From a virus, in IMG/VR virus record IMGVR_UViG_3300044709_000119, positions 1 to 47,688 of that record: a stretch of 47,688 nt of DNA; one strand, 5' to 3'. Positions 1,653 to 23,323 of this stretch are shown here, piece after piece (position 1 is the stretch's first letter; each line of letters opens with the position of its first letter). Made by a program: the position numbers and the translations under genes. The notes under the pieces were generated by a model. The model had not been told where the DNA came from and ran no database searches. It saw only the letters and a program-made list of their open reading frames with translations.

Positions 1653-1833
1653 GGCGCTTCAGCCGTGTGCGGTCTGCAAGTACGTTCTCTGTATCTGCGG
1701 AATCCAGCGCCTCCATGACCCCTTTTGCCAGAGACTCATGAAAATCCTCGATACCAAGCCAAGGCTCTGTTTGCCGCACTCCATGATCGCTTGTGGCGAG
1801 TGCTTCCCCTGCGACTGCGGGTCATCCACGTGA
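1612..1833 (+). CDS. Cys-rich small protein (73 aa)
   Basis: ATG 1612; clusters CAVCKYVLCIC and CGECFPCDC; TGA overlaps the GTG of the following cassette (GTGA). Confidence 0.45.
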   Translation: MSFRNTSSDSSPNEALQPCAVCKYVLCICGIQRLHDPFCQRLMKILDTKPRLCLPHSMIACGECFPCDCGSST

Positions 1834-2015
1834 AGCGCCTGGCGGGACCTCGCGAGCGGCTGGGGCGGCGGCTGGGGGGGCGGCTGTACCGGCGGCTGGA
1901 CTGGCGGCTGTGGCGGCGGCTATGCCGGCGGCTGGACTGGCGGCTGTGGGCGCGGGTGGGGCGGCGGCTGGAGGGGCGACTGGGGGGGCGGATCTATGAC
2001 AGGAGCCGCGCGTGA
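1830..2015 (+). CDS. junction cassette copy 1: (x-x-R-L)13 Arg/Leu repeat mini-ORF, 61 aa
   Basis: GTGAAGCGCCTGGCGGG head, 12-nt nnnnnnCGGCTG units, ATCTATGACAGGAGCCGCGCGTGA tail; start overlaps upstream stop and stop overlaps downstream GTG. Confidence 0.55.
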   Translation: MKRLAGPRERLGRRLGGRLYRRLDWRLWRRLCRRLDWRLWARVGRRLEGRLGGRIYDRSRA

Positions 2016-2227: not shown

Positions 2228-2305
2228 TGGTTGCGGAGAGCCGGATTCGAACCGGCGACCTATTGGTTATGAGCCAATCGCGCTACCAGACTGCGCCATC
2301 CCGCA
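2228..2305 (-). tRNA. tRNA-Met-like (anticodon CAT), atypical acceptor stem
   Basis: reverse complement reads TGCGGGA-TG-GCGC-AGTCTGGTA-GCGC-G-ATTGG-CTCATAA-CCAAT-AGGTC-GCCGG-TTCGAAT-CCGGC-TCTCCGCA-ACCA. D, anticodon and T arms are canonical; the acceptor needs a 1-nt bulge. Confidence 0.7.
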
Positions 2306-4178: not shown

Positions 4179-4412
4179 TCACGTCTCCACCCCCTGCAAT
4201 AGTGCCGACAGCGAGCACCCGTAAGCTCGAGCGAACTTCTGCAGGGTCTTGAACTGGGGCGAGTAGTACCCGAGCTCTGTCTTCGCCAGGTAGTACGCGC
4301 TGACGCCGACCTGATTCGCCGCGAATGGCTGCGTCCACCGGTACGACTTGCGCCACTCCGCCAGCGCTCGGCCGAGCTGCGCGTATGGGCGCTTCCTGTT
4401 GCCGCGTTTCAT
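4179..4412 (-). CDS. XRE-family helix-turn-helix regulator
   Basis: LAEWRKSYRWTQPFAANQVGVSAYYLAKTELGYYSPQFKTLQKFARAYGCSLSALL has the Cro/CI-type HTH layout. Confidence 0.8.
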   Translation of the reverse strand: MKRGNRKRPYAQLGRALAEWRKSYRWTQPFAANQVGVSAYYLAKTELGYYSPQFKTLQKFARAYGCSLSALLQGVET

Positions 4413-4413
4413 T

Positions 4414-6171
4414 TCAGTCTTCTCCAGGTTGGCGTGTGCCGTACACGATTTCAGTGAGCTTGGCTGGGTCGATCTTCCCGTAGCGTCCCCAGCCCTGCTC
4501 GTTCAAGTAGGCCATGGCCTCTTTGGCCCGGTCAGCCTTCACCGCCGTCTCCACGATCCCATACTTTTTCAGCTGCTTCACCTGCTTAAGCGATGCTAAC
4601 CCATCGGCCTTGCGCCTGAACAGGGAGTCGAGAAGCTTCGAAGCAGCGGAGCGGCTCAGCCCCTCGAGCTCCTTGTCGTCGAGCCCGAACTTCTTCAGGG
4701 CATCCGCCTGGCGCTCGCTCGGAGGCTTGAACCCGAAACGCCGCGTGTAGCGCTCGGAGTCGCCCAGGTCGACGTCCAAGATCTTGAACGGATCCCACTG
4801 CGTCTCCCGCGACTTTACCCTCACCTTCGCCGCCATGGCTGCGCGGGCGAGCTTCTCTCGAGCCTCCTTGAGTGCCTCGCGGATGTCGGCCGAGTTGCCC
4901 TTCTTGAGGAGCTTTTTCGCCTCCTCTACTTCCTCGTCGGTGTGGTTTCCCGCAAGAGCGTCGACGGGTCCAACAAGCTTGTGCTTACCGGCATTTCCCA
5001 CGAAGTCCATGACCACGCAATTGGGCTTACGTGATCCCGCAATGGCGCCTCTACGACTCGCATCCTGTGACCGATCAGGAAACGAATCGATAACTCCGGG
5101 CAGCGAACGGAGGCCTCGACCAATCTTCTGAACGATGAGCGCTCGCGATTTGGTGGGTCGTCCCAGTACAATGAGTGAAGTAGGCGGCGCATCGAAACCT
5201 TCCGTCAAAATTGAGCAATTGTGGAGCTCCTTGAGCTCGCCATTCCGGAACCTTCGGATCGCGTTCTTCACCGGGCAGTCAGCGCCATCCGCACGGAGTT
5301 CGCCAGCCACCCACTCGGCGCTGCCCGGCCTGAGCGCGTTGGCTCGAGCAGCGGCCGCCTCAGCGCACCGAACCCCTGGCCAGAAGTAGAGCGCCGGCCT
5401 GTCAGGCTCGAGCTCCCGGGACCGCGCCACGATGCCGTTCACCGCCTTGAACATGGCGTCGTCTAGTTGCCCAGCCGACAGGTCACCGGCAGAGTCCTGG
5501 ACCCCGGAGATGTCAATCTCATCCAGTTGCACCGACTGACCCACGAGCGGAACCAGGAACCCGTCAGCGATGCCGTCCTCGATGTCGTACGTGAAAGCCA
5601 CATCCTCCAGGATCATCCCGAGCGCCACCTCGTCAGCACGGTCAGGAGTCGCTGTGACGCCAAGGCGCTTCGCATCGAAGAACTCGAACGCCCGCCTGTA
5701 CGTTGACGCTGTAAAATGATGCGCTTCATCTGCGATTACCAGGCCGAATCGCCCCTTCCCGAGGCGGTCAAGCCGCGCCTGGTTCATCGACTGAATGGAC
5801 CCGACTACGAGACGCTGGCTTGGAACGCTCCGCTCGTTGGCCTTCTCGACTCCGACACTCTCACCTGTCGCCACGGCAAGCGCGTCCGCAGCCTGGCGCA
5901 CGAGCTCGTCCCTGTGGGCCAGCACCAGCACGTTGGGGCTCGCATTGAAGTCGTACGGCCAGCAGCTGGCGATGTGGCTGAACGATCTGGTTTTGCCAAG
6001 TCCTGTAGCCATTACGAGCAGCGTTGACCGGTACTCCCGTAGGCTCGCCAGGATGCGCGACTCGGCCTCTGTCTGATACCAGCGAAGCCCGCTTCCGCGA
6101 GCCTCCGCCCTCACAGGAGCAGGCGGTACAGGGCGAGGAGGAGCATCGAAGAACCCAAGCTGCGAGCTCAC
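4414..6171 (-). CDS. superfamily 2 DEAD/DEAH-box helicase
   Basis: LRWYQ (Q motif), MATGLGKT (Walker A), VIADEAHH (DEAH), GVTATP (motif III); GTG start lies in the cassette tail. Confidence 0.9.
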   Translation of the reverse strand: MSSQLGFFDAPPRPVPPAPVRAEARGSGLRWYQTEAESRILASLREYRSTLLVMATGLGKTRSFSHIASCWPYDFNASPNVLVLAHRDELVRQAADALAVATGESVGVEKANERSVPSQRLVVGSIQSMNQARLDRLGKGRFGLVIADEAHHFTASTYRRAFEFFDAKRLGVTATPDRADEVALGMILEDVAFTYDIEDGIADGFLVPLVGQSVQLDEIDISGVQDSAGDLSAGQLDDAMFKAVNGIVARSRELEPDRPALYFWPGVRCAEAAAARANALRPGSAEWVAGELRADGADCPVKNAIRRFRNGELKELHNCSILTEGFDAPPTSLIVLGRPTKSRALIVQKIGRGLRSLPGVIDSFPDRSQDASRRGAIAGSRKPNCVVMDFVGNAGKHKLVGPVDALAGNHTDEEVEEAKKLLKKGNSADIREALKEAREKLARAAMAAKVRVKSRETQWDPFKILDVDLGDSERYTRRFGFKPPSERQADALKKFGLDDKELEGLSRSAASKLLDSLFRRKADGLASLKQVKQLKKYGIVETAVKADRAKEAMAYLNEQGWGRYGKIDPAKLTEIVYGTRQPGED

Positions 6172-6353
6172 GCGCGGCTCCTGTCATACAGCCGCACATA
6201 CAGCCGCCCCCACAGCCGCCCGCCCAGCCACGCCCCCAGCCGCTCACTCAGCCGCTCGTACAGCCGCCAGCCCAGCCGCTCGTACATCCGCCCGTTCAGC
6301 CGCCCGCTCAGCCGCCGGTACAGCCGCCCGCGAGGTCCCGCCAGGCGCTTCAT
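6168..6353 (-). CDS. junction cassette copy 2: (x-x-R-L) repeat mini-ORF, 61 aa
   Basis: ATGAAGCGCCTGGCGGGACCTCGCGGGCGGCTG head; 10 of 12 units are exactly CGGCTG; tail TATGACAGGAGCCGCGCGTGA overlaps the helicase GTG. Confidence 0.55.
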   Translation of the reverse strand: MKRLAGPRGRLYRRLSGRLNGRMYERLGWRLYERLSERLGAWLGGRLWGRLYVRLYDRSRA

Positions 6354-6480
6354 GGCCACCCCCAGAAGCGCCTGCCCAGCGTCCACCAGGGGTTGTCAAT
6401 AGACGATGCGCCGGTGCTCGCAATTCGCTTCCACGTCAGCCACTCGAACGGGTCGAGCCCTCGCCATTGTGCAATTCGTT

Positions 6481-7392
6481 TCACTCTCGGCTCCTGAGCA
6501 GGTCAGCCAGGCGCTCTGGTTTGGCGGCGACCATCACGATACGGTCCACCTGGTCGAAGAACTTGTCGTCCACTGATTCAATCTTCGCCTGGCAGATCCA
6601 CCCCTGCATCTCGCATAGCGCGCACGACTCCTGGACTCCAGCAACCCCCTTGCAGTATGGACAGAGGCTCGCGGGGAACATGTTGCCAAGCAGCACCTCG
6701 AGCTGAGCTGTGAGCTCCTCAGCGTTACGGCGCACGCGGTGCGGCATGGGCATGGTGCGCAGCGCCGCGAGGTGCGCCTTTGTCTTCGCGACTAGGTCAC
6801 GCGCCATCGCAACGCGGTACTGAATGGATCCGATCTGCTTCTTGAACGGCTCCTCGAGCGGCATGCCGATATCGTGGAGCTTCACCTCAACCTCGCGAGG
6901 CTTCTCGGGCTCCTCCTGGCTGTGGCGCCTGTAGGCTCGCGCCAGTAGCTTCTGGTCCACGCCAGCAGCCTTGGCCACGCGGGCCACGGCACGCTGCAAC
7001 GGGGTCTTCTTGCTCTTCTCCATGGTTACCTCGGGAAGTTCTCTCAATCGGTCAATCTCTTCGGTGAGCGCACGCAGCGACGACTCGTCTGCGTTGCGCC
7101 TGTGTGCGTCCTCGGCCAGTTCGATGAGCTTCGCTTCGCGGTCAGAGCAGCGAACGACACGGCAACGGATCTCAGCGCGCTGAAGGAGCACATGGGCCGC
7201 CACGCGGTCCCGCCCAGCCAGCAGCTGGTACCGAGACCCGTCCTTTCGAACAGTCGGAGGGTTGATCATCACCAGCTCATCTATCGACTGGGCCAGGCGC
7301 CTGACGTGGTCAGCTTGGGTGCGCTGACGGATCTCCCCGGGAAGCCACAGCTTGGCCATAGCAAGGACCTTCTCGCCGAGTTCCTCTATCAC
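6481..7392 (-). CDS. ParB/Srx N-terminal-domain-like protein with C-terminal Cys cluster
   Basis: RRLAQSIDELVMINPPTVRKDGSRYQLLAGRDRVAAHVLL resembles the ParB N-terminal box; CPYC...CALC near the C-terminus; GTG start lies in the cassette tail. Confidence 0.55.
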   Translation of the reverse strand: MIEELGEKVLAMAKLWLPGEIRQRTQADHVRRLAQSIDELVMINPPTVRKDGSRYQLLAGRDRVAAHVLLQRAEIRCRVVRCSDREAKLIELAEDAHRRNADESSLRALTEEIDRLRELPEVTMEKSKKTPLQRAVARVAKAAGVDQKLLARAYRRHSQEEPEKPREVEVKLHDIGMPLEEPFKKQIGSIQYRVAMARDLVAKTKAHLAALRTMPMPHRVRRNAEELTAQLEVLLGNMFPASLCPYCKGVAGVQESCALCEMQGWICQAKIESVDDKFFDQVDRIVMVAAKPERLADLLRSRE

Positions 7393-7538
7393 GCGCGACT
7401 CCTGTCATAGATCCGACCGTACAGCCGCTCGTGCAGCCGCTCCTCCAGCCGCTCGTACAACCGATCGTCCAGCCGCTCCCACAGCCGCCAGTACAGCCGC
7501 CCGTCCAGCCGCCCGCGAGGCTCCGCCAGGCGCTTCAC
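7389..7538 (-). CDS. junction cassette copy 3: (x-x-R-L) repeat mini-ORF, 49 aa
   Basis: GTGAAGCGCCTGGCGGAGCCTCGCGGGCGGCTG head overlaps the erf stop (GTGA); 7 of 9 units are exactly CGGCTG; tail ATCTATGACAGGAGTCGCGCGTGA. Confidence 0.55.
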   Translation of the reverse strand: MKRLAEPRGRLDGRLYWRLWERLDDRLYERLEERLHERLYGRIYDRSRA

Positions 7539-8329
7539 TGTAGAGCCTTCATCAGTTTGCGCGCATCTCCGTAGGTGAAACGATCTCCACCGGGGGCCAT
7601 GTTCTTCCCGGTAATCTTGAGTATGTAGGCGTTTCTTTCCGCCTTTTCAGAGAGCCCCTTCTCCAGGAATAGGCTCGTGAGTGCCATGGCCGTCTTTGAG
7701 CCGGCTACCAGTGGGCCGTTGTCTGGAGCATCTGAGTCATCATGCTGCGAAGCCTCCGGAGGCTTCTGGGCAGGCGCTTGGCGATCGGGATCCGGCTCGC
7801 GCTGCTTAGGAAGCTCAGCCGGCTTCGGTTGGCTCTTGAACGGAGCAGACTGCTGAGGGGCGCCAGTGCCCGCCGCGTCGGGGTCATCGTCGCCGGCAAC
7901 CGCGCAGAGCCCACGCATTTGGTAGCGGTTCAGGTACGTGAACATCGACCCAACCCCTTTCACGTTCTCCGGCGCGACGGTGCACGTGAAGTCAGTAGAG
8001 ACCTCCACCATGGCCCCGTGGCCAGCGAGTATGGTAGTGGCGCGCTGTGTCCTAATGTTCACCTGACAGTTGGGGTGAAACACGGTCACCCCCTCTCGGT
8101 CCAGGCATGGGATTGCTGCCGCGTAGATGCTCGGCAGGTCAAGGTACTTGAAGGTCCTGTTTTGGAACTGTCCAGCAGCGTCAGCCACCATCGTCGGCAT
8201 TTGCGCCCGGGCCTTTCCCATGGCGCGAAGCAGCTTGGATATCTCCTCGGGCTTGCCGTGGAGTTCGAATGTCGAGGCACTCGCCTCGGGCGCCGCAGGC
8301 GGCGCTTCGGTCGATTCGTGTTCGGTCAT
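7535..8329 (-). CDS. erf: ERF-family single-strand annealing protein
   Basis: FKYLDLPSIYAAAIPCLDREGV and GSMFTYLNRYQMRGLCAVAGDDDPD match the ERF core (GS..TY.RRY.L..L.GI..DDD). Confidence 0.8.
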   Translation of the reverse strand: MTEHESTEAPPAAPEASASTFELHGKPEEISKLLRAMGKARAQMPTMVADAAGQFQNRTFKYLDLPSIYAAAIPCLDREGVTVFHPNCQVNIRTQRATTILAGHGAMVEVSTDFTCTVAPENVKGVGSMFTYLNRYQMRGLCAVAGDDDPDAAGTGAPQQSAPFKSQPKPAELPKQREPDPDRQAPAQKPPEASQHDDSDAPDNGPLVAGSKTAMALTSLFLEKGLSEKAERNAYILKITGKNMAPGGDRFTYGDARKLMKALQ

Positions 8330-8350
8330 AGTTTTCCTGTCAGAAGAATT

Positions 8351-8376
8351 GCGCCCCTAGATCGTGCCAGGGGCGC
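8351..8376 (-). terminator. hairpin between cassette copy 4 and erf (possible attenuator or terminator)
   Basis: GCGCCCCT, 10-nt loop, AGGGGCGC (8-bp perfect stem); on the minus strand it is followed by AATTCTTCT. Confidence 0.35.
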
Positions 8377-8385
8377 GCCATTAGG

Positions 8386-8508
8386 TCACCGTGTCTGCCC
8401 GCTCAGCCGATCGTACAGCCGCCCCCCCAGCCGCCAGGCCAGTCGCCCCCACAGCCGCCAGGCCAGTCGCCCCCACAGCCGCCAGCCAGGTTCCGCCAGG
8501 CGCTTCAT
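8386..8508 (-). CDS. junction cassette copy 4 (short): (x-x-R-L)7 mini-ORF, 40 aa
   Basis: ATGAAGCGCCTGGCGGAACC head overlaps the upstream stop (ATGA); lacks the AGGAG/GTGA tail. Confidence 0.5.
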   Translation of the reverse strand: MKRLAEPGWRLWGRLAWRLWGRLAWRLGGRLYDRLSGQTR

Positions 8509-9458
8509 TTTTCCCAGACGTATTGCAGTTCCGGGTTGCGGTCACACTCCTCGGAAGATACCGACGGAAGACCCAATCGCTCCCACGGCACCTGCCACTT
8601 GCGCGCGCCGAGTGCGGTCTTGAGGTCATCGGCAACCTGTTCCACGTAGAACGGCTGGTCTCCAGTCAGCAGTACAGGGCTCTGCTTCTTGAGCGCATGC
8701 TCTCCGCTGGGAAAGCGGTAGAGCGTGTAAGCAAGACCAGTCTCCTTGTCTACCTGCGAGCTCACCTCGGTGGCCCCCATGGCACCGAGCGCCACGTCCC
8801 AACCTAGCTTCTCACACAGCGCACGACGCACCTCGGTAGTCAGCTGCATCGCAGTAGGCACCAGGGACATCGGGTCCATGATGAGCGCCTTCGGGACCTC
8901 TACCCCGTGCCAGTAGTACTTCTCGCCGTCTTCTGCCCAGTGGAAAGCAGCACGGGTAGCCGAATGGAGCTCCCAATTCTCGTCCACGTCCACACGTGGA
9001 TTCTTCACGCACGCAAAGTGGGCGTCGTAGACCACGGAGTCGTACACGCACATTGATAGCGGGTAGATCTCGCCTGCCAGGCGCGAGTTGTCGTCGGGCT
9101 CGAGCTTCTTGAGTTCGTCGATTACGCAGCGGAAGTGGGCGAGCCACCGACGCTGCGGGAGCCCGATCCCATCGGTGCCCATGTGTTGCGACTTAGCACG
9201 CTGCCACTCTTTGTCGCCAGCCTTACCGGCCGGCTGCTCTTTCGCCCACTGCTCACGCTGCCACGCAAACAGCGCCTCACGCGAGTCGAAGCACACGATG
9301 TGTTCCGGAGGAGCAGCGTCTAACGCCTTGTAGAGCGCGTTCACCGCAGGCCTGAGCGACTCTGGAGAGATGTCTTGGATCGTGACCCGAGAGTGCTCCT
9401 CGACAAACTTGTCAACGAAGGCCCATTCCTCGGGAGTGAGGTCGTTTGCGTCAGCCAT
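8505..9458 (-). CDS. hypothetical protein (317 aa)
   Basis: ATG 9458 shares a base with the upstream TGA (TGATG). The N-terminal extension in the track looks like non-coding read-through. Confidence 0.65.
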   Translation of the reverse strand: MADANDLTPEEWAFVDKFVEEHSRVTIQDISPESLRPAVNALYKALDAAPPEHIVCFDSREALFAWQREQWAKEQPAGKAGDKEWQRAKSQHMGTDGIGLPQRRWLAHFRCVIDELKKLEPDDNSRLAGEIYPLSMCVYDSVVYDAHFACVKNPRVDVDENWELHSATRAAFHWAEDGEKYYWHGVEVPKALIMDPMSLVPTAMQLTTEVRRALCEKLGWDVALGAMGATEVSSQVDKETGLAYTLYRFPSGEHALKKQSPVLLTGDQPFYVEQVADDLKTALGARKWQVPWERLGLPSVSSEECDRNPELQYVWEK

Positions 9459-9766
9459 CAGTCGATCACCCCGTTGCGACCAGGTCCTTCGGCGAGGGAA
9501 GCAGCGGTGTAGTCGCCCGCCTTGAGCACACCTTCGGTGTGGCGGCCAGCGTGGATAATACGCGTGTCTTCCGACAGGCGCAGGCGAATCACAGTATTGG
9601 CGCCCTCCCCCTCGCGAGAGAACATGCAAGCGCCAACGATGGTGTGGGGAGCGGTGTCGTTGCCGGCCACCACGAGGTCGTGTGCCGGCTTCAGCTCTGC
9701 TGTGTGGGGAGTCGATTGCTTGGCGAACACGAGGTCGCCGTGGCGAAACAGTTGCGGTTCTGACAT
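9458..9766 (-). CDS. hypothetical protein (102 aa)
   Basis: ATG 9766 lies 3 nt after the upstream TAA; the rest of the 215-aa track ORF overlaps the exonuclease gene. Confidence 0.6.
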   Translation of the reverse strand: MSEPQLFRHGDLVFAKQSTPHTAELKPAHDLVVAGNDTAPHTIVGACMFSREGEGANTVIRLRLSEDTRIIHAGRHTEGVLKAGDYTAASLAEGPGRNGVID

Positions 9767-9768
9767 GG

Positions 9769-10740
9769 TTACTTCTTCTCTTTCAGCCAGCGGAATTGCT
9801 GGAACGGTTTTCCGGTCTTCTGGAAGCTGCGAGCTTCCGGGAATGCTTTCTCGAGAGCCTCGAAGTCTATCGACTTGCGGCCCGGCATGTTCACGGGCAG
9901 GAAGCGCTTGCCGCTCGTCTCGTCTCGAATCGCCTCGCCCCGGCGCGCTCGCTCCTCGAACTCCTCGACCACTGCCTTGCCCAGCTCGACGAGCGCCTTC
10001 GCCCTGAGCACTTGGGTAGCCGCGTCGCAAGTCAGCCCTTGCGGGTCGGCCACAAGCTTGATGGCCTCGCCCAGGTGCTCTGGGCAGTGGAGGCGCTCCC
10101 AGCACTCACGGCAGTGGAGGCCGGTCGATCCTGTAGTGGCCAGGTTCAGCGCCGCCTGAGTAACGCGACCCACGATCCCAAGGTCTTCGGAGCTGCCCAC
10201 TCGGATCATTCGGTCTAGCCAGTGCCACTCACCATCCTCGGCCACGTAGATCCCAGTCGTGTAGTAGTCACACTGCCTCATGCGAGCGTATGTGGCAGCG
10301 TAGGCCATCACCTGCAGGGTTTCTGGACCGGTTGATGTCCAGATGGTCTTTTTGGCGTCAGCGACGAATGCGACACGAAGCGGGCGCTTCTCGAGCGCTT
10401 GCAACTCCTTGGTCCAGGCCATGTCGAGATGGCCAACGCACTCGAGCCCGCCCCCCAGTGGCAACCGCACCTCAAGCTCCCTCTCAGCCTCGCTCACGAG
10501 TAGCTTGGTGCCGTCGCTCGCCTCGGACTCCACGGGCACCTGCCAGGAGTTCACCTCCTCGGCCTCCTCAGGGGTCAGCGCTGGCATGGGCGCCCCTGAG
10601 ACGCGAGCATGGAAAGCGGTTCCCATGGCCGCCGCGCGTCCGGCGCCGTAGCGCGATCCGAGCGTTCCAGCGAGCCCGCAGAACTCGCTCACGCCAAGTG
10701 CGCTCATGCGGTTCGGGGTGGCGAAAAGGTCGTCAAACAT
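9769..10740 (-). CDS. PD-(D/E)XK (Cas4/RecB-like) exonuclease
   Basis: GHLDM...FVADAKK (D...D.K motif) and C-terminal CRECWERLHC cluster; sits beside erf as in exo/annealase pairs. Confidence 0.6.
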   Translation of the reverse strand: MFDDLFATPNRMSALGVSEFCGLAGTLGSRYGAGRAAAMGTAFHARVSGAPMPALTPEEAEEVNSWQVPVESEASDGTKLLVSEAERELEVRLPLGGGLECVGHLDMAWTKELQALEKRPLRVAFVADAKKTIWTSTGPETLQVMAYAATYARMRQCDYYTTGIYVAEDGEWHWLDRMIRVGSSEDLGIVGRVTQAALNLATTGSTGLHCRECWERLHCPEHLGEAIKLVADPQGLTCDAATQVLRAKALVELGKAVVEEFEERARRGEAIRDETSGKRFLPVNMPGRKSIDFEALEKAFPEARSFQKTGKPFQQFRWLKEKK

Positions 10741-10969
10741 TGCGTGTGTCCTGACTATCAGAGTTCGCTTCGCGTGTCAACACAGAAGTGACAAGTCGAT
10801 CGTACATCCGCCCGCCCAGCCGCTCGTATATCCGCCAGTACATCCACCAGCCCAGCCGCTCGTATATCCGCCAGTACATCCACTCCCCCAGCCTACCCCG
10901 CAACACACGACCCGTACGCCCCTCCAGCCGCCCCCCCAACCGCCAGTCCGGGTCCGCCAGGCGCTTCAT
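10733..10969 (-). CDS. junction cassette copy 5: repeat body 10794..10969 fused to a promoter; ORF reads on to 10733
   Basis: ATGAAGCGCCTGGCGGACCC head overlaps the upstream stop (ATGA); 13 x-x-R-L/M/I units; after ...MYDRL the frame runs through the 19-bp promoter motif. Confidence 0.4.
   Translation of the reverse strand: MKRLADPDWRLGGRLEGRTGRVLRGRLGEWMYWRIYERLGWWMYWRIYERLGGRMYDRLVTSVLTREANSDSQDTRNV
10752..10793 (-). promoter_or_regulatory. sigma70-like promoter with 19-bp motif TGTCACTTCTGTGTTGACA
   Basis: minus strand: TTGACA, 17 nt, TAGTCA, then GGACACACGCA-ATG (10740). Confidence 0.6.
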
Positions 10970-11130
10970 TTGTACCCCATGAGAGCGAGCGCCTTCCGCT
11001 CTGCGATTGATGCCTGCAGTTCGAGCTGGGCAGCCAGATCGGAGCGTGGTGTGGCCAGCTGCAACGTGCGCAGGTTCCTGGCACGGCGCGCAAGGCGCAT
11101 GGCCTCTGAGTGCTTGGTGTTGTGTCGCAT
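10966..11130 (-). CDS. hypothetical helical protein (54 aa, MRHNTKHSEAMRLARRARNL...)
   Basis: hand-translated; ATG 11130; TGA overlaps the cassette ATG (ATGA); below the track length cutoff. Confidence 0.45.
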   Translation of the reverse strand: MRHNTKHSEAMRLARRARNLRTLQLATPRSDLAAQLELQASIAERKALALMGYK

Positions 11131-11135
11131 GGGGT

Positions 11136-11405
11136 TCACTTGAAAGGGAGTTCGGAATAGACTGCAACCGGATGAACAGACTCGAGCTCCGGGTCGCTAA
11201 GGATGATGTGGGCAGCCTTGTTGAGCCGGTCGGTGACCGATGATCCGGGAACATCCACGGCGTGATGGCGCACACGAATGATCACGCGGCCATGTGCGAC
11301 AGTGAAACCGTGTCCGGTCTTCGATGCCCACGTTTCGAGCGCACGCTTGGCCTTAAGCTCTTCTTCCAGGGTCAGCGCTTGTTCGCAGTTGCATGGCGGC
11401 TTCAT
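11136..11405 (-). CDS. hypothetical protein (89 aa)
   Basis: ATG 11405 overlaps the upstream stop (ATGA). Confidence 0.55.
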   Translation of the reverse strand: MKPPCNCEQALTLEEELKAKRALETWASKTGHGFTVAHGRVIIRVRHHAVDVPGSSVTDRLNKAAHIILSDPELESVHPVAVYSELPFK

Positions 11406-11719
11406 CGTGATGGCCAATCTGTTTGGTACCAGTCCAGGAACTCCTGAACGAACGACTCCGCAACGGCGAGCCGTGTCTCTACGGTGAACAGCCGAAACCA
11501 CGAGTCAGTAACGGAGCCATGCTCGCGTCGGTAGTTCTGGGCGCCAAGTCTAGTCGTATAGGCAAAAGCCTTCGGCGCTAGGTCAGGCGAGTACTTGCCG
11601 CGGTCTTTCTTCTTGGCAAGGTTTCGGAACACCGCGATCTTCTGGTTGTAGAATGCTTCGGTATTGTCGATGTAGAGCTCGAGCTCTCGCACGGCGTGGT
11701 CGTCGGGTTCTTTGCTCAT
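11402..11719 (-). CDS. hypothetical protein (105 aa)
   Basis: ATG 11719 overlaps the upstream stop (ATGA). Confidence 0.55.
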   Translation of the reverse strand: MSKEPDDHAVRELELYIDNTEAFYNQKIAVFRNLAKKKDRGKYSPDLAPKAFAYTTRLGAQNYRREHGSVTDSWFRLFTVETRLAVAESFVQEFLDWYQTDWPSR

Positions 11720-11982
11720 TTGGAGAATCTCACAGAGGAAGGGTGGACTTTGAGTTGAGTTGCGATCGTATCGGTGGCCATGGCTTTCGCCTCGGCCCTG
11801 GAAGTGGCACGCAGAAAGAACGAATGGTCCCCGGACTCGCACTCATACACATCGCCTTGCCCGTGATTCACACCGAAGTAGCAATTGTTGTAGGCTCCGG
11901 CGTAGCCGTTCGAGTCGATACGCACCTTGCGAAGGTGACACTTGAGTGCGTCGGTACGGTAGACACGAGGGGAAGCGCTCAC
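11716..11982 (-). CDS. hypothetical protein (88 aa)
   Basis: GTG 11982 overlaps the cassette stop (GTGA). Confidence 0.5.
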   Translation of the reverse strand: MSASPRVYRTDALKCHLRKVRIDSNGYAGAYNNCYFGVNHGQGDVYECESGDHSFFLRATSRAEAKAMATDTIATQLKVHPSSVRFSK

Positions 11983-12149
11983 AGCGAAATCCCCTCCAGC
12001 CGCCCCCACAGCCGCCCCTCCAGCCGCCCCCGCAGCCGCCAGTACAGCCGCCCGTCCAGTCGCCCGTACAGTCGCCCCCCCAGCCGCCCGTCCAGCCGCC
12101 GCCCCAGCCGCCCGTCCAGCCGCCCGCGAGGTCCCGCCAGGCGCTTCAT
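11979..12149 (-). CDS. junction cassette copy 6: (x-x-R-L) repeat mini-ORF, 56 aa
   Basis: TGATGAAGCGCCTGGCGGGACCTCGCGGGCGGCTG head; 11 R-L units; stop overlaps the downstream GTG. Confidence 0.55.
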   Translation of the reverse strand: MKRLAGPRGRLDGRLGRRLDGRLGGRLYGRLDGRLYWRLRGRLEGRLWGRLEGISL

Positions 12150-12403
12150 CAGCCGCCCACCGCGTAGGTGCGGACGCCGTCAGGTGACTCGACCTCGACA
12201 GTGGTCCAGAAGGTAAACAGGCGCGGCTTCTTGCCATCGTAGCAGACCAGGATCCGGCGCTTGCCGGTCGGCATATCGCGGTCCACTACGGTGGTTTCTG
12301 CGAAGTCCTCGCACACAGCAGGGCGCTTGGGTTTCGGGTCTGCCGCCGCATCGCAACAGATGACAAGGAGCGCGACGAATGAGAGAACGGGAATGAGTTT
12401 CAT
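12149..12403 (-). CDS. small exported protein (signal peptide)
   Basis: MKLIPVLSFVALLVICCDAAADP N-terminal signal-like sequence. Confidence 0.6.
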   Translation of the reverse strand: MKLIPVLSFVALLVICCDAAADPKPKRPAVCEDFAETTVVDRDMPTGKRRILVCYDGKKPRLFTFWTTVEVESPDGVRTYAVGG

Positions 12404-12771
12404 GTGCGGGCTTTCACCTGGATAGGTTGACGGCAGTGGTATTTAGAAGCGAACCAAGCGCGCGCCGAAGCGGGAGACTTCGTGTGGATCAGCGCCGAGT
12501 GGTACATGTGAGGCATCGTTCTCTGTTCGAACACTGGGCACGCCTCGGAGCAGGAAACCTCAAACCAGAGCATGCGCGAATCGCGGTAGATGGCCGACAG
12601 GCAGTGGACGCACGACTTCTCCGACACGAGAAAGTCGGGCATTGAAACGATCGGCGGGTGCCCGTAGCGCGCTCCGCAAAGTGGTGAACTTGCCAGCGCC
12701 GTTCGCATAGGATCGCCCGCAAGGTATGTATCGTCCCCGGCTGACAGGTGTAGTTTTGCGCGGTCTGACAT
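12400..12771 (-). CDS. hypothetical protein (123 aa)
   Basis: ATG 12771 preceded by TAGGAGAC; stop overlaps the next start. Confidence 0.6.
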   Translation of the reverse strand: MSDRAKLHLSAGDDTYLAGDPMRTALASSPLCGARYGHPPIVSMPDFLVSEKSCVHCLSAIYRDSRMLWFEVSCSEACPVFEQRTMPHMYHSALIHTKSPASARAWFASKYHCRQPIQVKART

Positions 12772-12780
12772 GTGAGTCTC

Positions 12781-13008
12781 CTAGAAGGTGCGGCCGGCTC
12801 TCGCCTCGGCCGCTAGCCACGCATCCCAGTGGCCGGTTGGGTTACCGCAGGCGCCTGAACCTTTGCGGTGCGGGAAGTGGTAGGCGCCGCATGAACACAC
12901 GCGGCGCTGTGGTTGAATCTTGCGCATGCGCCGGCACTTAGGGCGAGCCGGGCGACATCCAGGAAGGTGACAGGTCACCCCACAGCGGACCATGCGCGGT
13001 TGTTTCAC
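12781..13008 (-). CDS. Cys/His-rich small protein (CxC...YHFPHRKGSGAC)
   Basis: GTG 13008 lies 4 nt after the cassette TAG (alternative start ATG 12993); 8 Cys. Confidence 0.5.
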   Translation of the reverse strand: MKQPRMVRCGVTCHLPGCRPARPKCRRMRKIQPQRRVCSCGAYHFPHRKGSGACGNPTGHWDAWLAAEARAGRTF

Positions 13009-13012
13009 GGTG

Positions 13013-13195
13013 CTAGCCCCCCACCCACCCCCACAGCCGCCACAGCCGCCCCCACAGCCGCCCGTCCAGCCGCCGCCACAGCCGCCCGTACAGCCGCCGG
13101 CCCAGCCGCTCGCCCAGCCGCCAGCCAAGGCGACCGCTCAGGCGCCAATACAGCCGCCCGTCCAGCCGCCCGCGAGGTCTAGTCAGGCGCTTCAC
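13013..13195 (-). CDS. junction cassette copy 7: (x-x-R-L) repeat mini-ORF, 60 aa
   Basis: GTGAAGCGCCTGACTAGACCTCGCGGGCGGCTG head overlaps the upstream stop (GTGA); 11 units; divergent WRLWGWVGG tail. Confidence 0.5.
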   Translation of the reverse strand: MKRLTRPRGRLDGRLYWRLSGRLGWRLGERLGRRLYGRLWRRLDGRLWGRLWRLWGWVGG

Positions 13196-18331: not shown

Positions 18332-18546
18332 ACTGGAAACCATACGAACTCGGCCCTGACGGCGAGGTGCCGGTGACCGAAGGGACCCTCTATCTCTTTG
18401 CCCTGGAACTCGAGCCCGGTGGATGGACCTACTTCGTGGACTCGATGGTCTGGGACTCCGAGACCGACCCAACCTGGCGCGATGGTGACCACGGCTGGGA
18501 CCTGGACGTCCCTGAGTTCTACTGCGAACTGGAGCCCCCACGATGA
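18328..18546 (+). CDS. hypothetical acidic protein (72 aa)
   Basis: ATG overlaps the upstream stop (ATGA). Confidence 0.55.
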   Translation: MNWKPYELGPDGEVPVTEGTLYLFALELEPGGWTYFVDSMVWDSETDPTWRDGDHGWDLDVPEFYCELEPPR

Positions 18547-18692
18547 AACGCCTCTACCCAGATGGTGGCCTATGCGGGCTATGGGGCGCCTTGTGCCGGA
18601 TGCGCACATTCGGCGACAAGCAGAACCTGCTCCTGTCTAGGGCGCTGTACGGACGACTCATGGACAGGACATTTACCCTGGTGCGCGCATGA
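18543..18692 (+). CDS. degenerate member of the junction-cassette family (49 aa, MKRL...LYGRLMDR...RA)
   Basis: ATGAAACGCCT head and CTGTACGGACGACTCATGGACAGGAC...CGCGCATGA tail align with the cassette head and tail; ATGA overlaps on both sides. Confidence 0.45.
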   Translation: MKRLYPDGGLCGLWGALCRMRTFGDKQNLLLSRALYGRLMDRTFTLVRA

Positions 18693-20184: not shown

Positions 20185-20358
20185 ATGAAAAGACTCAACG
20201 AAGAGGTCTGCATGAGCGAGTGGCTTCGTGCGCACGCGCCGACGGCCCTGTTCCGCAGGAAATCGCGACCGAGCAAGATCTCAAAAAATGCGATGACCAT
20301 CCTCTTCTTACGCCTCGAAGGGATCTGCCCATTCCCCGACATGCGAGCATGGCCGTGA
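20185..20358 (+). CDS. hypothetical protein (57 aa)
   Basis: ATG 20185 after GGGAATTCTCC; TGA lies inside the cassette head (GTGA). Confidence 0.45.
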   Translation: MKRLNEEVCMSEWLRAHAPTALFRRKSRPSKISKNAMTILFLRLEGICPFPDMRAWP

Positions 20359-20528
20359 AGCGCCTGGAGGACACTCGCGGGCGTATGGACTGGCGGCTGC
20401 ATGACCGGCTGTACCGGCGGCTGGCGGGGCGGCTGGGCGGGCGGCTGGACGGGCCGGTGTGGCGGCGGCTGAGCGGTCGACTTGGCTGGCGGCTGGACGG
20501 GCAGATCTATGACAGGAGTATGCTGTGA
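20355..20528 (+). CDS. junction cassette copy 8: (x-x-R-L) repeat mini-ORF, 57 aa
   Basis: GTGAAGCGCCTGGAGGACACTCGCGGGCGTATG head; tail ATCTATGACAGGAGTATGCTGTGA overlaps the GTG of the rusA-like gene. Confidence 0.55.
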   Translation: MKRLEDTRGRMDWRLHDRLYRRLAGRLGGRLDGPVWRRLSGRLGWRLDGQIYDRSML

Positions 20529-21133
20529 ACGCGAGCATCTGGTTCCCGTTCAAGTTCCCAAACTTCAACGAGCTCATCGCTGACGCGAGCAAGGTACGTC
20601 AGAAGCGTCGCCGCTCGCCGCTCGAGAAGAAACAGGTCGTACCAGCCTACGCCGAGACCAAACGCCGATGGACCAGTATCGTAGTCGCCTGGTGCCGGCA
20701 AAAGGGCTACGCGGTTCTTCCTGGCTGCTGGGAGTTCACTTACCTCTTCGTCGAAGAGAACATGCGGAAGGACCCGCTCAACATCGCGGCGGGAGCAGTC
20801 AAGATGATTGAAGACGGCCTCGTGAAGGCCGGCGTCATGGAGAACGACGGCTGGGCCCAGGTCTCCTCCCTTCATTGCTATTTTGCCTCCACCAAAGACA
20901 AAGAAACCCACGGCCTCGGCAAAGCCGGGGTGCTCCTATCAATCGGTCCCAAGATGTCCACCGAGGCAGAAATGCTCGAGGTGGCAAGAATGCTGAGCAA
21001 AGATGTCCCAAGAAGTCGCAGCCAAAAAACCACGATCCAAGCCCTGGAAGCCTCCGACGGAGCTCCAGATCATCTCTCGCCTCCAGAAGGAGATGGCCCA
21101 ACTGAACCCGTCAGCGAGGAAGCGAGTCTATGA
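20525..21133 (+). CDS. rusA: RusA-like Holliday junction resolvase
   Basis: FPFKFPNFNE and RKDPLNIAAGAVKMIEDGLVKAGVMENDGWAQV parallel the RusA segments PWPPSNN and [27 protein letters not shown]; the last 130 nt overlap a better-scoring frame. Confidence 0.55.
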   Translation: MNASIWFPFKFPNFNELIADASKVRQKRRRSPLEKKQVVPAYAETKRRWTSIVVAWCRQKGYAVLPGCWEFTYLFVEENMRKDPLNIAAGAVKMIEDGLVKAGVMENDGWAQVSSLHCYFASTKDKETHGLGKAGVLLSIGPKMSTEAEMLEVARMLSKDVPRSRSQKTTIQALEASDGAPDHLSPPEGDGPTEPVSEEASL

Positions 21134-22808: not shown

Positions 22809-23323
22809 CAGCGCCCCCTAAATTCATCAGCGACCGTCCGCTCGAGCCCAAGTCGGTTGACGTCGGTGGACCGGCCAGGTCCTTTTCCGGCAAGGCAGAG
22901 GCCCTCTGGCAATGGGTCCACATGGAGCTCAAACCGTTCCTCTTGATGGCCCAGAAGAAGATCGCCGGCATGCTCAACCAGCCACCATTCTTCGGTCATC
23001 CCATGTGGGACGGAGGCACCTGGAGAGCCGTCAGGCTGGGCGAGCTCGCGCCTGACCTGCTCGACGCAGACGAGACGCTGACAGTCGCAATGGGCGACCA
23101 CCACGTCCAGCGCGTCGACGGTGCCAGCGTCCCCCGCGTGAAGACGCTGAGCCCCGCTGGAGCTGTGGCGGGAAACGCCAAGTTCCTGTGGAACATGAGC
23201 GACCAGACGCTGACGTTTGGCTCAGCCATCGTCGCTGCCGGCTACTACTGCGAAGCGAGCTTCGATGGAGTCGCGTGGGTGCCGCTGCGGATCCTGCGCA
23301 TCGTAGGAGACCCCCCGTTTTGA
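22805..23323 (+). CDS. hypothetical protein immediately upstream of terL (172 aa)
   Basis: ATG overlaps the upstream stop (ATGA). Confidence 0.6.
   Translation: MTAPPKFISDRPLEPKSVDVGGPARSFSGKAEALWQWVHMELKPFLLMAQKKIAGMLNQPPFFGHPMWDGGTWRAVRLGELAPDLLDADETLTVAMGDHHVQRVDGASVPRVKTLSPAGAVAGNAKFLWNMSDQTLTFGSAIVAAGYYCEASFDGVAWVPLRILRIVGDPPF

Follow-up and report, generated by a model that had tools for sequence, protein, structure and literature searches.

The repeats of TALE proteins are 34 amino acids (aa) long and near-identical save for two adjacent hypervariable residues, the repeat-variable di-residues. In pentapeptide-repeat proteins such as MfpA and Qnr, the tandem repeats are very short and each unit turns one aliphatic residue inward. 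Short multi-copy DNA repeats or boundary cassettes are found in iteron, parC and stoperator arrays and in the PeSL elements of T4-type phages. In HsdS, the subunit that confers specificity on Type I restriction-modification (R-M) systems, central 12-bp repeats encoding four residues set the distance between the two target-recognition domains, according to the account in PMC3077401 (citing Price et al. 1989). Here we describe eight tandem-repeat cassettes with a period of 12 nucleotides (nt) in the phage genome IMGVR_UViG_3300044709_000119 from IMG/VR, which was analysed over its full length (positions 1 to 47,688 of the record, 47,688 nt; hereafter the window). We consider it likely that these cassettes represent short, translated early genes forming one paralogous family, that is, hypervariable tetrapeptide arrays split off from proteins of the DUF6745 family (Pfam PF20530).

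The arrays found inside DUF6745 proteins and those of the window have the same period of 4 aa or 12 nt, an aliphatic residue at position 4, a polar one at position 3, and the same restricted alphabet at positions 1 and 2 (W, R, G, Y, D, A, S, E and others). They also share a neighbourhood of ERF, Rad52 or RecT, YqaJ, AAA_24 and RusA genes and a conserved gene of ~100 aa. In contrast to the DUF6745 arrays, those of the window are separate open reading frames (ORFs) of 40-78 aa with their own start, in eight copies over two early arms, and carry Arg at position 3 instead of Q, S or A. An earlier reading of this DNA from its letters alone (the sequence-only reading) knew of no described element with this architecture. 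This holds for the literature searched, in which no paper mentions DUF6745 or PF20530, but not for the array type, which belongs to this catalogued family. HsdS is alike in having coding 12-bp repeats between two domains, with a copy number that varies between alleles. However, the 2-6 units of HsdS, itself a component of a defined enzyme, are near-identical and lack hypervariable positions, whereas the arrays described here have 7-70 units with two hypervariable residues; stand-alone cassettes lack flanking domains, and the analogy could suit DUF6745 arrays in their fused form only. Profile searches detected no R-M domains. The array of one DUF6745 protein (P0147) matches the PADLOC profile 'Type I specificity subunit', probably through low-complexity similarity.

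The window is a phage genome of 63% GC without a near relative in INPHARED; queries of this phage collection with 8 kb of DNA and one cassette peptide gave no match. The right arm codes for terminase, tail-spike-like proteins and a head-closure protein, and the early arms carry genes for a superfamily 2 (SF2) helicase, a ParB-like protein, ERF and a RusA-like resolvase; the annotations of the helicase, ParB-like and RusA-like genes made in the sequence-only reading were upheld. All eight cassettes are located inside early operons, as ORFs of 40-78 codons with 7-13 units x-x-R-(L/M/I/V). Their coordinates and strands were confirmed by pattern scan, Tandem Repeats Finder and ORF reading. Tandem Repeats Finder placed the 12-nt arrays (also reported as 24- or 36-nt) at 1856-1991, 6188-6331, 7413-7512, 8416-8489, 10802-10944, 11991-12125, 13016-13173 and 20378-20502, and a scan of the structural arm with the same program returned no array beyond 20.5 kb, as had been claimed for this arm. 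Every clear copy consists of a head RTGAAGCGCCTGG... and 12-nt units nnnnnnCGGCTG in an open frame, and all eight, read from the head, encode M/VKRLxxP..(x-x-R-L)n. The head RTGAAGCGCCTGGMGG was found seven times without mismatch, and three consecutive units CGGCTG-N6 occur 24 times, compared to 0.00 expected from shuffles. Among the units of the window, position 3 is Arg in 80/85 and position 4 is L/M/I/V in 84/85 (L 73, M 5, I 4, V 2, T 1), while positions 1 and 2 draw on a restricted alphabet (G, Y, W, D, R, E, S and others). The M-K-R-L start is itself a first x-x-polar-aliphatic unit, in which Lys at codon 2 is favoured because the RTGA overlap with the upstream gene fixes the first base of this codon as A. 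Independent public gene callers also predict the cassette ORFs as genes.

Two of the array mini-genes lie on the plus strand. The first (1830..2015; 61 aa, 12 units x-x-R-L) ends in the canonical tail IYDRSRA, which includes AGGAG, and the next gene starts at 2012 in the terminal GTGA. The second (20355..20528; 57 aa, 10 units) holds the start of the RusA-like gene (20525-21133) in its terminal GTGA. On the minus strand, the terminal GTGA of the mini-gene 6168..6353 (61 aa, 12 units, canonical tail) contains the start of the helicase gene (4414-6171). The mini-gene 7389..7538 (49 aa, 9 units) is placed between the genes of the ERF-family single-strand annealing protein (7535..8329, minus strand) and the ParB-like protein (6481-7392), with a 4-nt overlap on each side, and 8386..8508 (40 aa, 7 units) overlaps the stop of an array-less DUF6745 gene by 4 nt. 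Further copies are located at 11979..12149 (56 aa, 11 units, non-canonical tail EGISL, upstream stop TGATGA) and 13013..13195 (60 aa, 11 units and an additional one of 9 nt, with TAG as its stop). The copy previously delimited as 10794-10969 does contain an array, but its ORF continues to a stop at 10733 and thus encodes 78 aa with 13 units and a non-repeat C-terminus; this mini-gene (10733..10969) encodes a product identical to the public protein P0122 and shares 8 nt with the start of a 323-aa gene. The four tails with AGGAG (1830, 6168, 7389 and, with a variant end, 20355) and the downstream starts at the GTG within GTGA (2012, 6171, 7392, 11982 and 20525) stood up to re-examination. The supposed degenerate ninth copy (18543..18692, plus strand) did not: it is a non-repeat MKRL ORF of 49 aa and not a decayed array. 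It is one of at least three non-repeat small ORFs that have the MKR(L/I) start in common with the array ORFs, together with a 57-aa MKRL ORF with the head ATGAAAAGACTC (20185..20358, plus strand) directly 5' of the mini-gene at 20355, and a 44-aa ORF with the same head type, VKRIAQWRGL... (6350..6484, minus strand), between the ParB-like gene and the array mini-gene.

The helicase of the window has thousands of homologues on contigs of ~45-48 kb, and we compared the genomic contexts of the closest ones. L238, whose helicase is 94% identical, has cassettes at the same seven junctions. In L240 (helicase 77% identical), the cassettes are built on nnnnnnCGCCTG and are rich in H, D and Y, with a 32-aa version at the ERF-ParB joint. 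L244 (helicase 40% identical) carries five tandem cassettes immediately 3' of the helicase gene; their head is ATGAAGAGACTT, which still encodes MKRL (spelled ATGAAGCGCCTG in the window), their units are nnnnnnCGCGTC (x-x-R-V), and an ATGA overlap as well as AGGAGG are part of their tail RVRRLP*. For the constant dipeptide, the codons are CGGCTG in the window and L238, CGCCTG in L240 and L404, CGCGTC in L244, CGC/CGT-GTC in L435, CGCGTG in L406, CAAGTN in L687 and TCAGTT in L707. A polar-aliphatic pair is kept in frame across relatives of 33-65% GC with at least seven different hexamers in use. In 23/23 copies from seven genomes the sense frame is open, while every other frame is closed in some copy. 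Single-step non-synonymous changes of CTG at position 4 led to M or V seven times and never to P, Q or R (p=0.0016), and position 3 of the CGC lineages changed to His 13 times versus no change to Cys (p=0.0001). Cassettes of the window and L238 differ by indels of 12 or 3 nt or multiples thereof, with the exception of one shift in a G-run. Since the hexamer varies while the dipeptide and the frame persist, the peptide and not the DNA is conserved, and selection acts on the former.

These comparisons bear on the possibility that the 12-bp units are DNA sites, such as iterons, parC/parS or stoperators for the ParB-like or helix-turn-helix proteins, with incidental open frames. The sequence-only reading had listed this among its hypotheses, and we now regard it as very improbable indeed. 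The cassettes share with iteron, parC, stoperator and PeSL elements that they occur in multiple copies between early genes, all co-oriented with transcription in a stoperator-like manner, and their conserved ends could mediate recombination. They have 7-13 units of 12-bp periodicity, a ParB-like gene is located directly 3' of one copy, and CGGCTG is far more uniform than codon usage predicts, with CGG accounting for 15% of the Arg codons in the other genes of the window and for 80% in the arrays. But the uniform hexamer reflects descent by unit duplication and not codon choice. Moreover, the hexamer is not conserved in related phages while the dipeptide is, down to the AT-rich CAAGTN and TCAGTT; start codon, open sense frame and the overlap of the stop with the next gene are preserved in each copy; amino acid replacements are conservative; and in 42/52 viral DUF6745 genes these same arrays occupy the centre of ORFs of 400-500 aa (see below). 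Neither promoter-like sites nor internal terminator-like sites were detected in any cassette. At least in the collections searched, the cassettes are no generic host microsatellite either: a 32-nt head pattern had 0 matches in 185,579 species genomes and a metagenome collection, and a 15-nt head pattern gave only single chance matches in IMG/VR, none of them with arrays. For annotation, G-rich 12-nt arrays whose sense frame reads polar-aliphatic should be treated as genes and not as intergenic microsatellites. G-quadruplex or R-loop formation was dropped as a candidate, with arrays of 49% G in the window compared to 29-36% G in L240 and L244.

The proposal that the cassettes encode translated Arg-rich peptides was borne out in part. 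Translation is supported by the cross-lineage constraint, but the richness in Arg is specific to the clade of the window. Outside this clade, Q, S, A, N, K or E occupies position 3, and the net charge within the family ranges from -2 to +17, so that generic polyanion binding is not the conserved property. Direct searches for further copies returned little: a word-indexed protein search with one cassette peptide gave no match, exact look-ups of the cassettes in the protein collection retrieved only one L238 cassette, and a Pfam search of the cassettes found no match, the pentapeptide family included. DNA patterns of three units (CGGCTG, CGCGTC, CGCCTG) in IMG/VR were dominated by simple repeats, and only L435 was useful among the matches listed. 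A helicase-based survey of 80 IMG/VR and 80 metagenome loci detected arrays in L244 only, and other low-complexity ORFs in L241 and L332. The latter belong to low-complexity early ORFs of the type (G-Y-G-x)n in relatives (L241 5063-5965, L332 420-905, L406 9566-9829; e.g. MLPIGYGYGYGSGYGYGNGDGDGYG...); the L406 ORF lies just 5' of the DUF6745 gene, alongside (xxRV)n cassettes. Non-repeat MKRL or VKRL ORFs (GTGAAGCGCCTGG...) occupy junctions that hold arrays in the window in L401 (827-976) and L239 (4400-4540, 9801-10013, 11913-12047), whose helicases are 67-75% identical to that of the window. The MKRL start is therefore common to array and non-array small genes. BLASTP did not align the non-repeat MKRL ORFs of the window with those of L401.

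The link to DUF6745 emerged from a hidden Markov model (HMM) that was built from the eight peptides of the window and searched against 1.84 billion representative proteins. It matched 225 proteins, and a DUF6745 C-domain combined with an internal (xx[Q/K/E]L)n array was the commonest recognisable architecture, present in 32 of the best 149 matches. These 32 proteins consist of an N-terminal domain of ~75 aa, an array (x-x-[Q/K/E]-L)n of 18-45 units and the C-terminal DUF6745 domain. DUF6745 is common in phages and prophages as well as in genomes of Actinomycetes, Alphaproteobacteria and Planctomycetota, within the early region for recombination and replication. The bacterial array-bearing genes, from Pseudonocardia, Brevundimonas, Maricaulis, Shinella, Planctomycetota and others, adjoin ERF, YqaJ, Rad52, AAA_24 and RusA genes. 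In the window, the DUF6745-family early gene (8505..9458, minus strand; 317 aa from the Met at 9458) has an N-terminal 'LTPEEW' domain and a C-terminal domain, with a linker of ~40 aa in place of the central array, and the cassette 8386-8508 comes directly after it. Searches for the function of DUF6745 in NCBIfam, PADLOC and PDB sequences and with Foldseek against the PDB were uninformative.

We subsequently compared fused and free-standing arrays among viral DUF6745 genes. A pattern scan of IMG/VR gave at least 87 DUF6745 matches, and the C-domain scan yielded 80 loci, 52 of which were assessable by virtue of sufficient upstream sequence. An internal array xx[Q/S/A/N][L/V] within the same ORF was present in 42 of these 52 genes. 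Stand-alone arrays were found at none of the 42 loci with an internal array versus three clear cases among the ten array-less loci (L684, L687, L707; Fisher p=0.005). An array-less DUF6745 gene together with a stand-alone array also occurs in L435, L715, L404, L240, L238 and the window. L687 (34% GC) carries nine, possibly ten, tandem MK[S/A/N][L/I]-(xxQV)n ORFs joined by ATGA, eight of them with at least ten units, and L707 (33% GC) has six MKxLGKPV-(xxSV)n ORFs and two non-repeat ORFs with the same head. Tandem MKxL-array mini-genes linked by ATGA, as in the window, thus occur again in phages unrelated to it. By these sequence comparisons, the cassettes are the free-standing, multiplied form of the DUF6745 central array. 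From the fused-versus-split pattern we infer that the cassette peptides cooperate with the DUF6745 protein or share a process with it. What is new here is the hallmark of this family, a hypervariable four-residue array that can be split into multi-copy mini-genes and in which variation is focused on two residues. One IMG/VR contig (3300022562_001757, 82.6 kb) encodes three DUF6745 paralogues (L669, L671, L674), each with an internal (xxQL)n array.

The arrays are hypervariable. Window and L238 are 94.0% identical outside the cassettes and 77-90% inside, with heads, tails and flanks almost unchanged. The cassette 7389..7538 has the same length in L238 and differs at 35/150 nt, nearly all in the x-x codons. 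Positional orthologues have no more 18-mers in common than non-orthologues, and both genomes draw on a common pool in which 21 unit types account for 60/84 window units and 45/70 L238 units. The scrambled interiors and the common unit pool show that the arrays reshuffle much faster than the rest of the genome diverges. Entropy within the window arrays was 1.66/1.18/1.15 bits at x1 and 1.23/0.95/0.51 bits at x2, compared to 0.67 at adjacent four-fold sites. Diversity at the two x residues thus exceeds the synonymous background and would be maintained above it, which points to diversifying selection. Unit number also varies between relatives, a comparison the sequence-only reading had called for: between L686 and L704, at 94% identity, the difference amounts to 13 units. 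The window has a non-canonical tail at locus 11979, its L238 counterpart a canonical one; this one tail swap and the absent signal of positional orthology suggest exchange between paralogues. ERF (7535..8329) is a plausible driver of repeat-unit shuffling.

In some relatives the variation is confined still further. In the arrays of L716 (60 units) and L712 (26 units), only nt 1 and nt 5 of the 12 vary, and the other ten positions, synonymous sites included, have zero entropy. In L685 (44 units), nt 1, 5 and 6 vary, the latter co-varying with nt 5, and the other nine have zero entropy. The first nucleotide is the first base of the x1 codon NGG and selects W, R or G; nt 5 is the second base of the x2 codon and selects D/A or D/G. 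Each of these three arrays can therefore be written with six unit types, {W,R,G}x{D,A or G}. L716, L697, L696 and L709 use the same set of DNA units in entirely different order and number. The window arrays are more diverged, with all six x nucleotides varying. The pattern recalls TALE repeats in that units are near-identical even at synonymous sites, two adjacent residues vary, and order and number differ between relatives. Unlike TALE repeats, the unit has 4 aa, the window arrays are more diverged, and both the proteins and their biology differ; the proteins are unrelated and the likeness is a lead only. Arrays inside DUF6745 or free-standing might form a programmable recognition module with the smallest known unit, a constant polar-aliphatic scaffold displaying two hypervariable residues, in which unit order would spell the target as in TALE, PPR or PUF arrays, but we consider this a long shot. 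In its favour, several arrays vary at only 2/12 nt per unit with every synonymous site frozen, the order is completely scrambled between near-identical genomes, and several differently spelled copies occur per genome. Candidate targets would be the single-stranded nucleic acid handled by the ERF/Rad52/RecT genes or a variable host or competitor protein. With its hallmark array, the split form and the focus of variation on two residues, an anonymous DUF becomes a testable problem, pointing to either a new variable recognition module or a factor in the phage-host arms race.

Regarding the fold, AlphaFold2 in single-sequence mode predicted one long helix for the cassette 6168..6353 (residues 8-59, predicted local distance difference test score (pLDDT) 72). 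The hydrophobic moment of the arrays was 0.14-0.64 at 100 degrees, high at 90 degrees and 0.85-1.82 at 180 degrees. This periodicity fits a beta or solenoid structure better than an alpha-helix. As in MfpA and Qnr, the repeats are very short, each unit has one aliphatic residue, and the moment favours beta or solenoid; unlike in these proteins, the period is 4 and not 5, no Pfam pentapeptide match was obtained, and AlphaFold2 gave a helix for one cassette. The model of the DUF6745 protein 8505..9458 reached a pLDDT of 70, with a low-confidence linker (80-101) where homologues have the array, and Foldseek found no fold match for it in the PDB.

In eight of eight copies, the sequence-only reading had noted, the upstream ORF terminates in the cassette head, which it weighed against a chance of one in three. 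This baseline was too low: among the non-cassette same-strand junctions of the window, 21/54 already show the 4-nt RTGA overlap, and six more a 1-nt overlap. Cassette junctions have the 4-nt overlap in 14/18 cases. Because 21/54 other junctions use the same overlap, this property is ordinary; the stop in the head and the start in the tail are the normal translational-coupling grammar of this genome, consistently applied, and no special device. The cassettes themselves are nevertheless a real finding and no artefact of gene packing.

The junctions also invite the explanation that the cassettes are translational spacers or attenuators which only hand over or slow ribosomes, for example by the rare CGG, and the peptide would then be a by-product. 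The overlaps are in keeping with this, as are AGGAG in the canonical tail 7 nt before the downstream GTG, the status of CGG as a minor Arg codon in the window genome and a stem-loop in the spacer behind cassette 8386-8508. However, 39% of the ordinary junctions couple without a cassette, and amino acids at positions 3 and 4 are under purifying selection. Within the long DUF6745 ORFs, a role as mere spacer is ruled out because the array is internal to one ORF. The coupling hypothesis of the sequence-only reading thus holds for the overlaps and the tail Shine-Dalgarno (SD) motif, which are ordinary gene packing, and not for a special spacer role. The rare-codon attenuator was dropped, since relatives use the common codon CGC; a tRNA for CGG was sought in the window without success, tRNA-Met being the only tRNA encoded. 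RNA folding was no better than in shuffled sequences in three of four sense-strand segments (z = -0.56, -0.78, -0.62), with segment 12000-12149 as the exception (z = -3.70), and both antisense controls were unremarkable. An Rfam search of the window returned only a tRNA and no cassette family. We regard a pure spacer function as very unlikely. The stem-loop mentioned above, 10 bp and GC-rich and followed by a T-rich tract (8351-8376, minus strand), lies in the 56-nt spacer between the cassette 8386-8508 and the ERF start, a spacer that L238 has in almost identical form; within the early operon, the stem-loop may serve as an attenuator or as a site of RNA processing.

A further explanation regards the cassettes as selfish or recombinogenic linkers whose heads and tails would serve as portable homology spreading to RTGA junctions and favouring exchange or duplication of the flanking early genes, with a peptide that needs only to be harmless. 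Several observations point in this direction. Paralogous cassettes have nearly identical 33-nt heads and 24-nt tails between unrelated flanks. The 44-aa VKRI ORF (6350-6484) is present in the window and absent from L238, with the indel exactly at the ParB/cassette head, and in L240 ~190 nt are duplicated in tandem where the ParB and helicase genes join (4260-4640). Identity between window and L238 changes in steps between cassette-bounded segments (96.9, 89.4, 94.9, then 97.8, 89.6%), although these could be gene-specific rates. The tail swap at 11979 and the lack of a positional 18-mer excess speak for exchange between paralogues, and an annealing protein, ERF, is encoded nearby. On the other hand, the window and L238, and for the most part L240, have their cassettes at syntenic positions; there is neither a transposase nor a duplication beyond RTGA; and no significant RNA hairpin was detected, with one exception, terminal inverted repeats in DNA not having been searched directly. 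This explanation accounts neither for the amino acid conservation across 33-65% GC nor for the form fused to DUF6745. We judge it unlikely as the reason for which cassettes exist. A role as recombination joints would be a side property compatible with their being translated arrays derived from DUF6745, and the linker hypothesis of the sequence-only reading gains some support from the ORF indel at the head, the duplicated L240 joint and the identity steps at cassette borders. In the duplicated L240 joint (4260-4640), the ParB 3' end with the head (GCGAGGTGACAAGTGAARCGCCTG) and the helicase 5' end each occur twice, and one copy contains an array ORF, the other a non-repeat VKRL ORF. At the helicase gene itself, ~835 nt (9273-10109) interrupt the L238 copy and are absent from the window (5721-5726). 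The helicase homologue P0002 from L240 carries an intein (Hom_end_hint), and several other homologues have Hint or intein domains.

The favoured explanation would work as follows. The cassette genes form part of recombination/replication operons and their translation most probably proceeds by termination-reinitiation from the gene upstream, and the canonical tail would provide AGGAG and the GTG start for the following gene. The DUF6745 gene of the window may have lost, or never had, its array, and a cassette comes directly after it. The peptides would be a variable recognition or assembly module acting with the DUF6745 protein. The arrays change as 12-nt units are gained, lost and reshuffled, and probably also through exchange among paralogues, with diversity kept at the two x positions.

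Several points weigh against this account of split-off, translated DUF6745 arrays. Translation by coupling and cooperation with the DUF6745 protein are both inferences. The cassette starts are preceded by weak SD motifs only, which makes reinitiation behind the upstream stop the likely entry. HMM E-values between low-complexity repeats are inflated. The window gene 8505-9458 scores 17.6 bits (E=0.0024) on PF20530, below the Pfam cut-off of 27, and its DUF6745 membership therefore rests on homologues: BLASTP against P0123 (61 bits in Pfam) gave 4e-10 in the C-domain, with the N-terminal segment aligned too; the homologues P0274 (46% identity) and P0275 (32% identity) bear precomputed PF20530; and the L406 copy of the gene scores 34.1 bits. 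With eight cassettes among ~45 early genes, their adjacency to DUF6745 in the window alone could be due to chance, and five of the ten array-less DUF6745 loci have no stand-alone array within 4 kb. The L238 cassette following the DUF6745 gene (6587-6753) is frameshifted by the loss of 1 nt in a G7 run, so that its head is out of frame with the array; this copy is 44 nt longer than 8386-8508 in the window and may represent a pseudogene, a slippery run or an error of sequencing. For long arrays assembled from short metagenomic reads, the order of units may be unreliable, a problem to which the arrays of the window and L238 (at most 186 nt) are less exposed. Finally, the hydrophobic moments do not indicate a canonical amphipathic helix despite the single-sequence helix model.

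A 102-aa gene of the window (9458..9766, minus strand) was assigned by multiple alignment to a conserved family of ~100-117 aa. Its members always neighbour DUF6745 genes, up- or downstream, in phages and prophages (L404 9698-9997, L435 8052-8351, L410 7293-7643, L411 7477-7830, L413 7282-7635). They share the motifs GD..K, H..H, G.Y, E and D at the C-terminus, and a Pfam search of the family gave no match. BLASTP did not align the window gene with its L410 counterpart, while the multiple alignment shows their common motifs. Elsewhere in the window, a tRNA-Met (CAT) gene is located at 2228-2305 (minus strand), between the plus-strand genes of the left arm and an HNH-like gene (2322-2699). In the large terminase ORF (23320-25830, plus strand; 836 aa), terminase profiles match in two separate pieces, residues 8-610 (covering profile positions 154-412 only) and then 606-727, which suggests an insertion or a fused extra domain.

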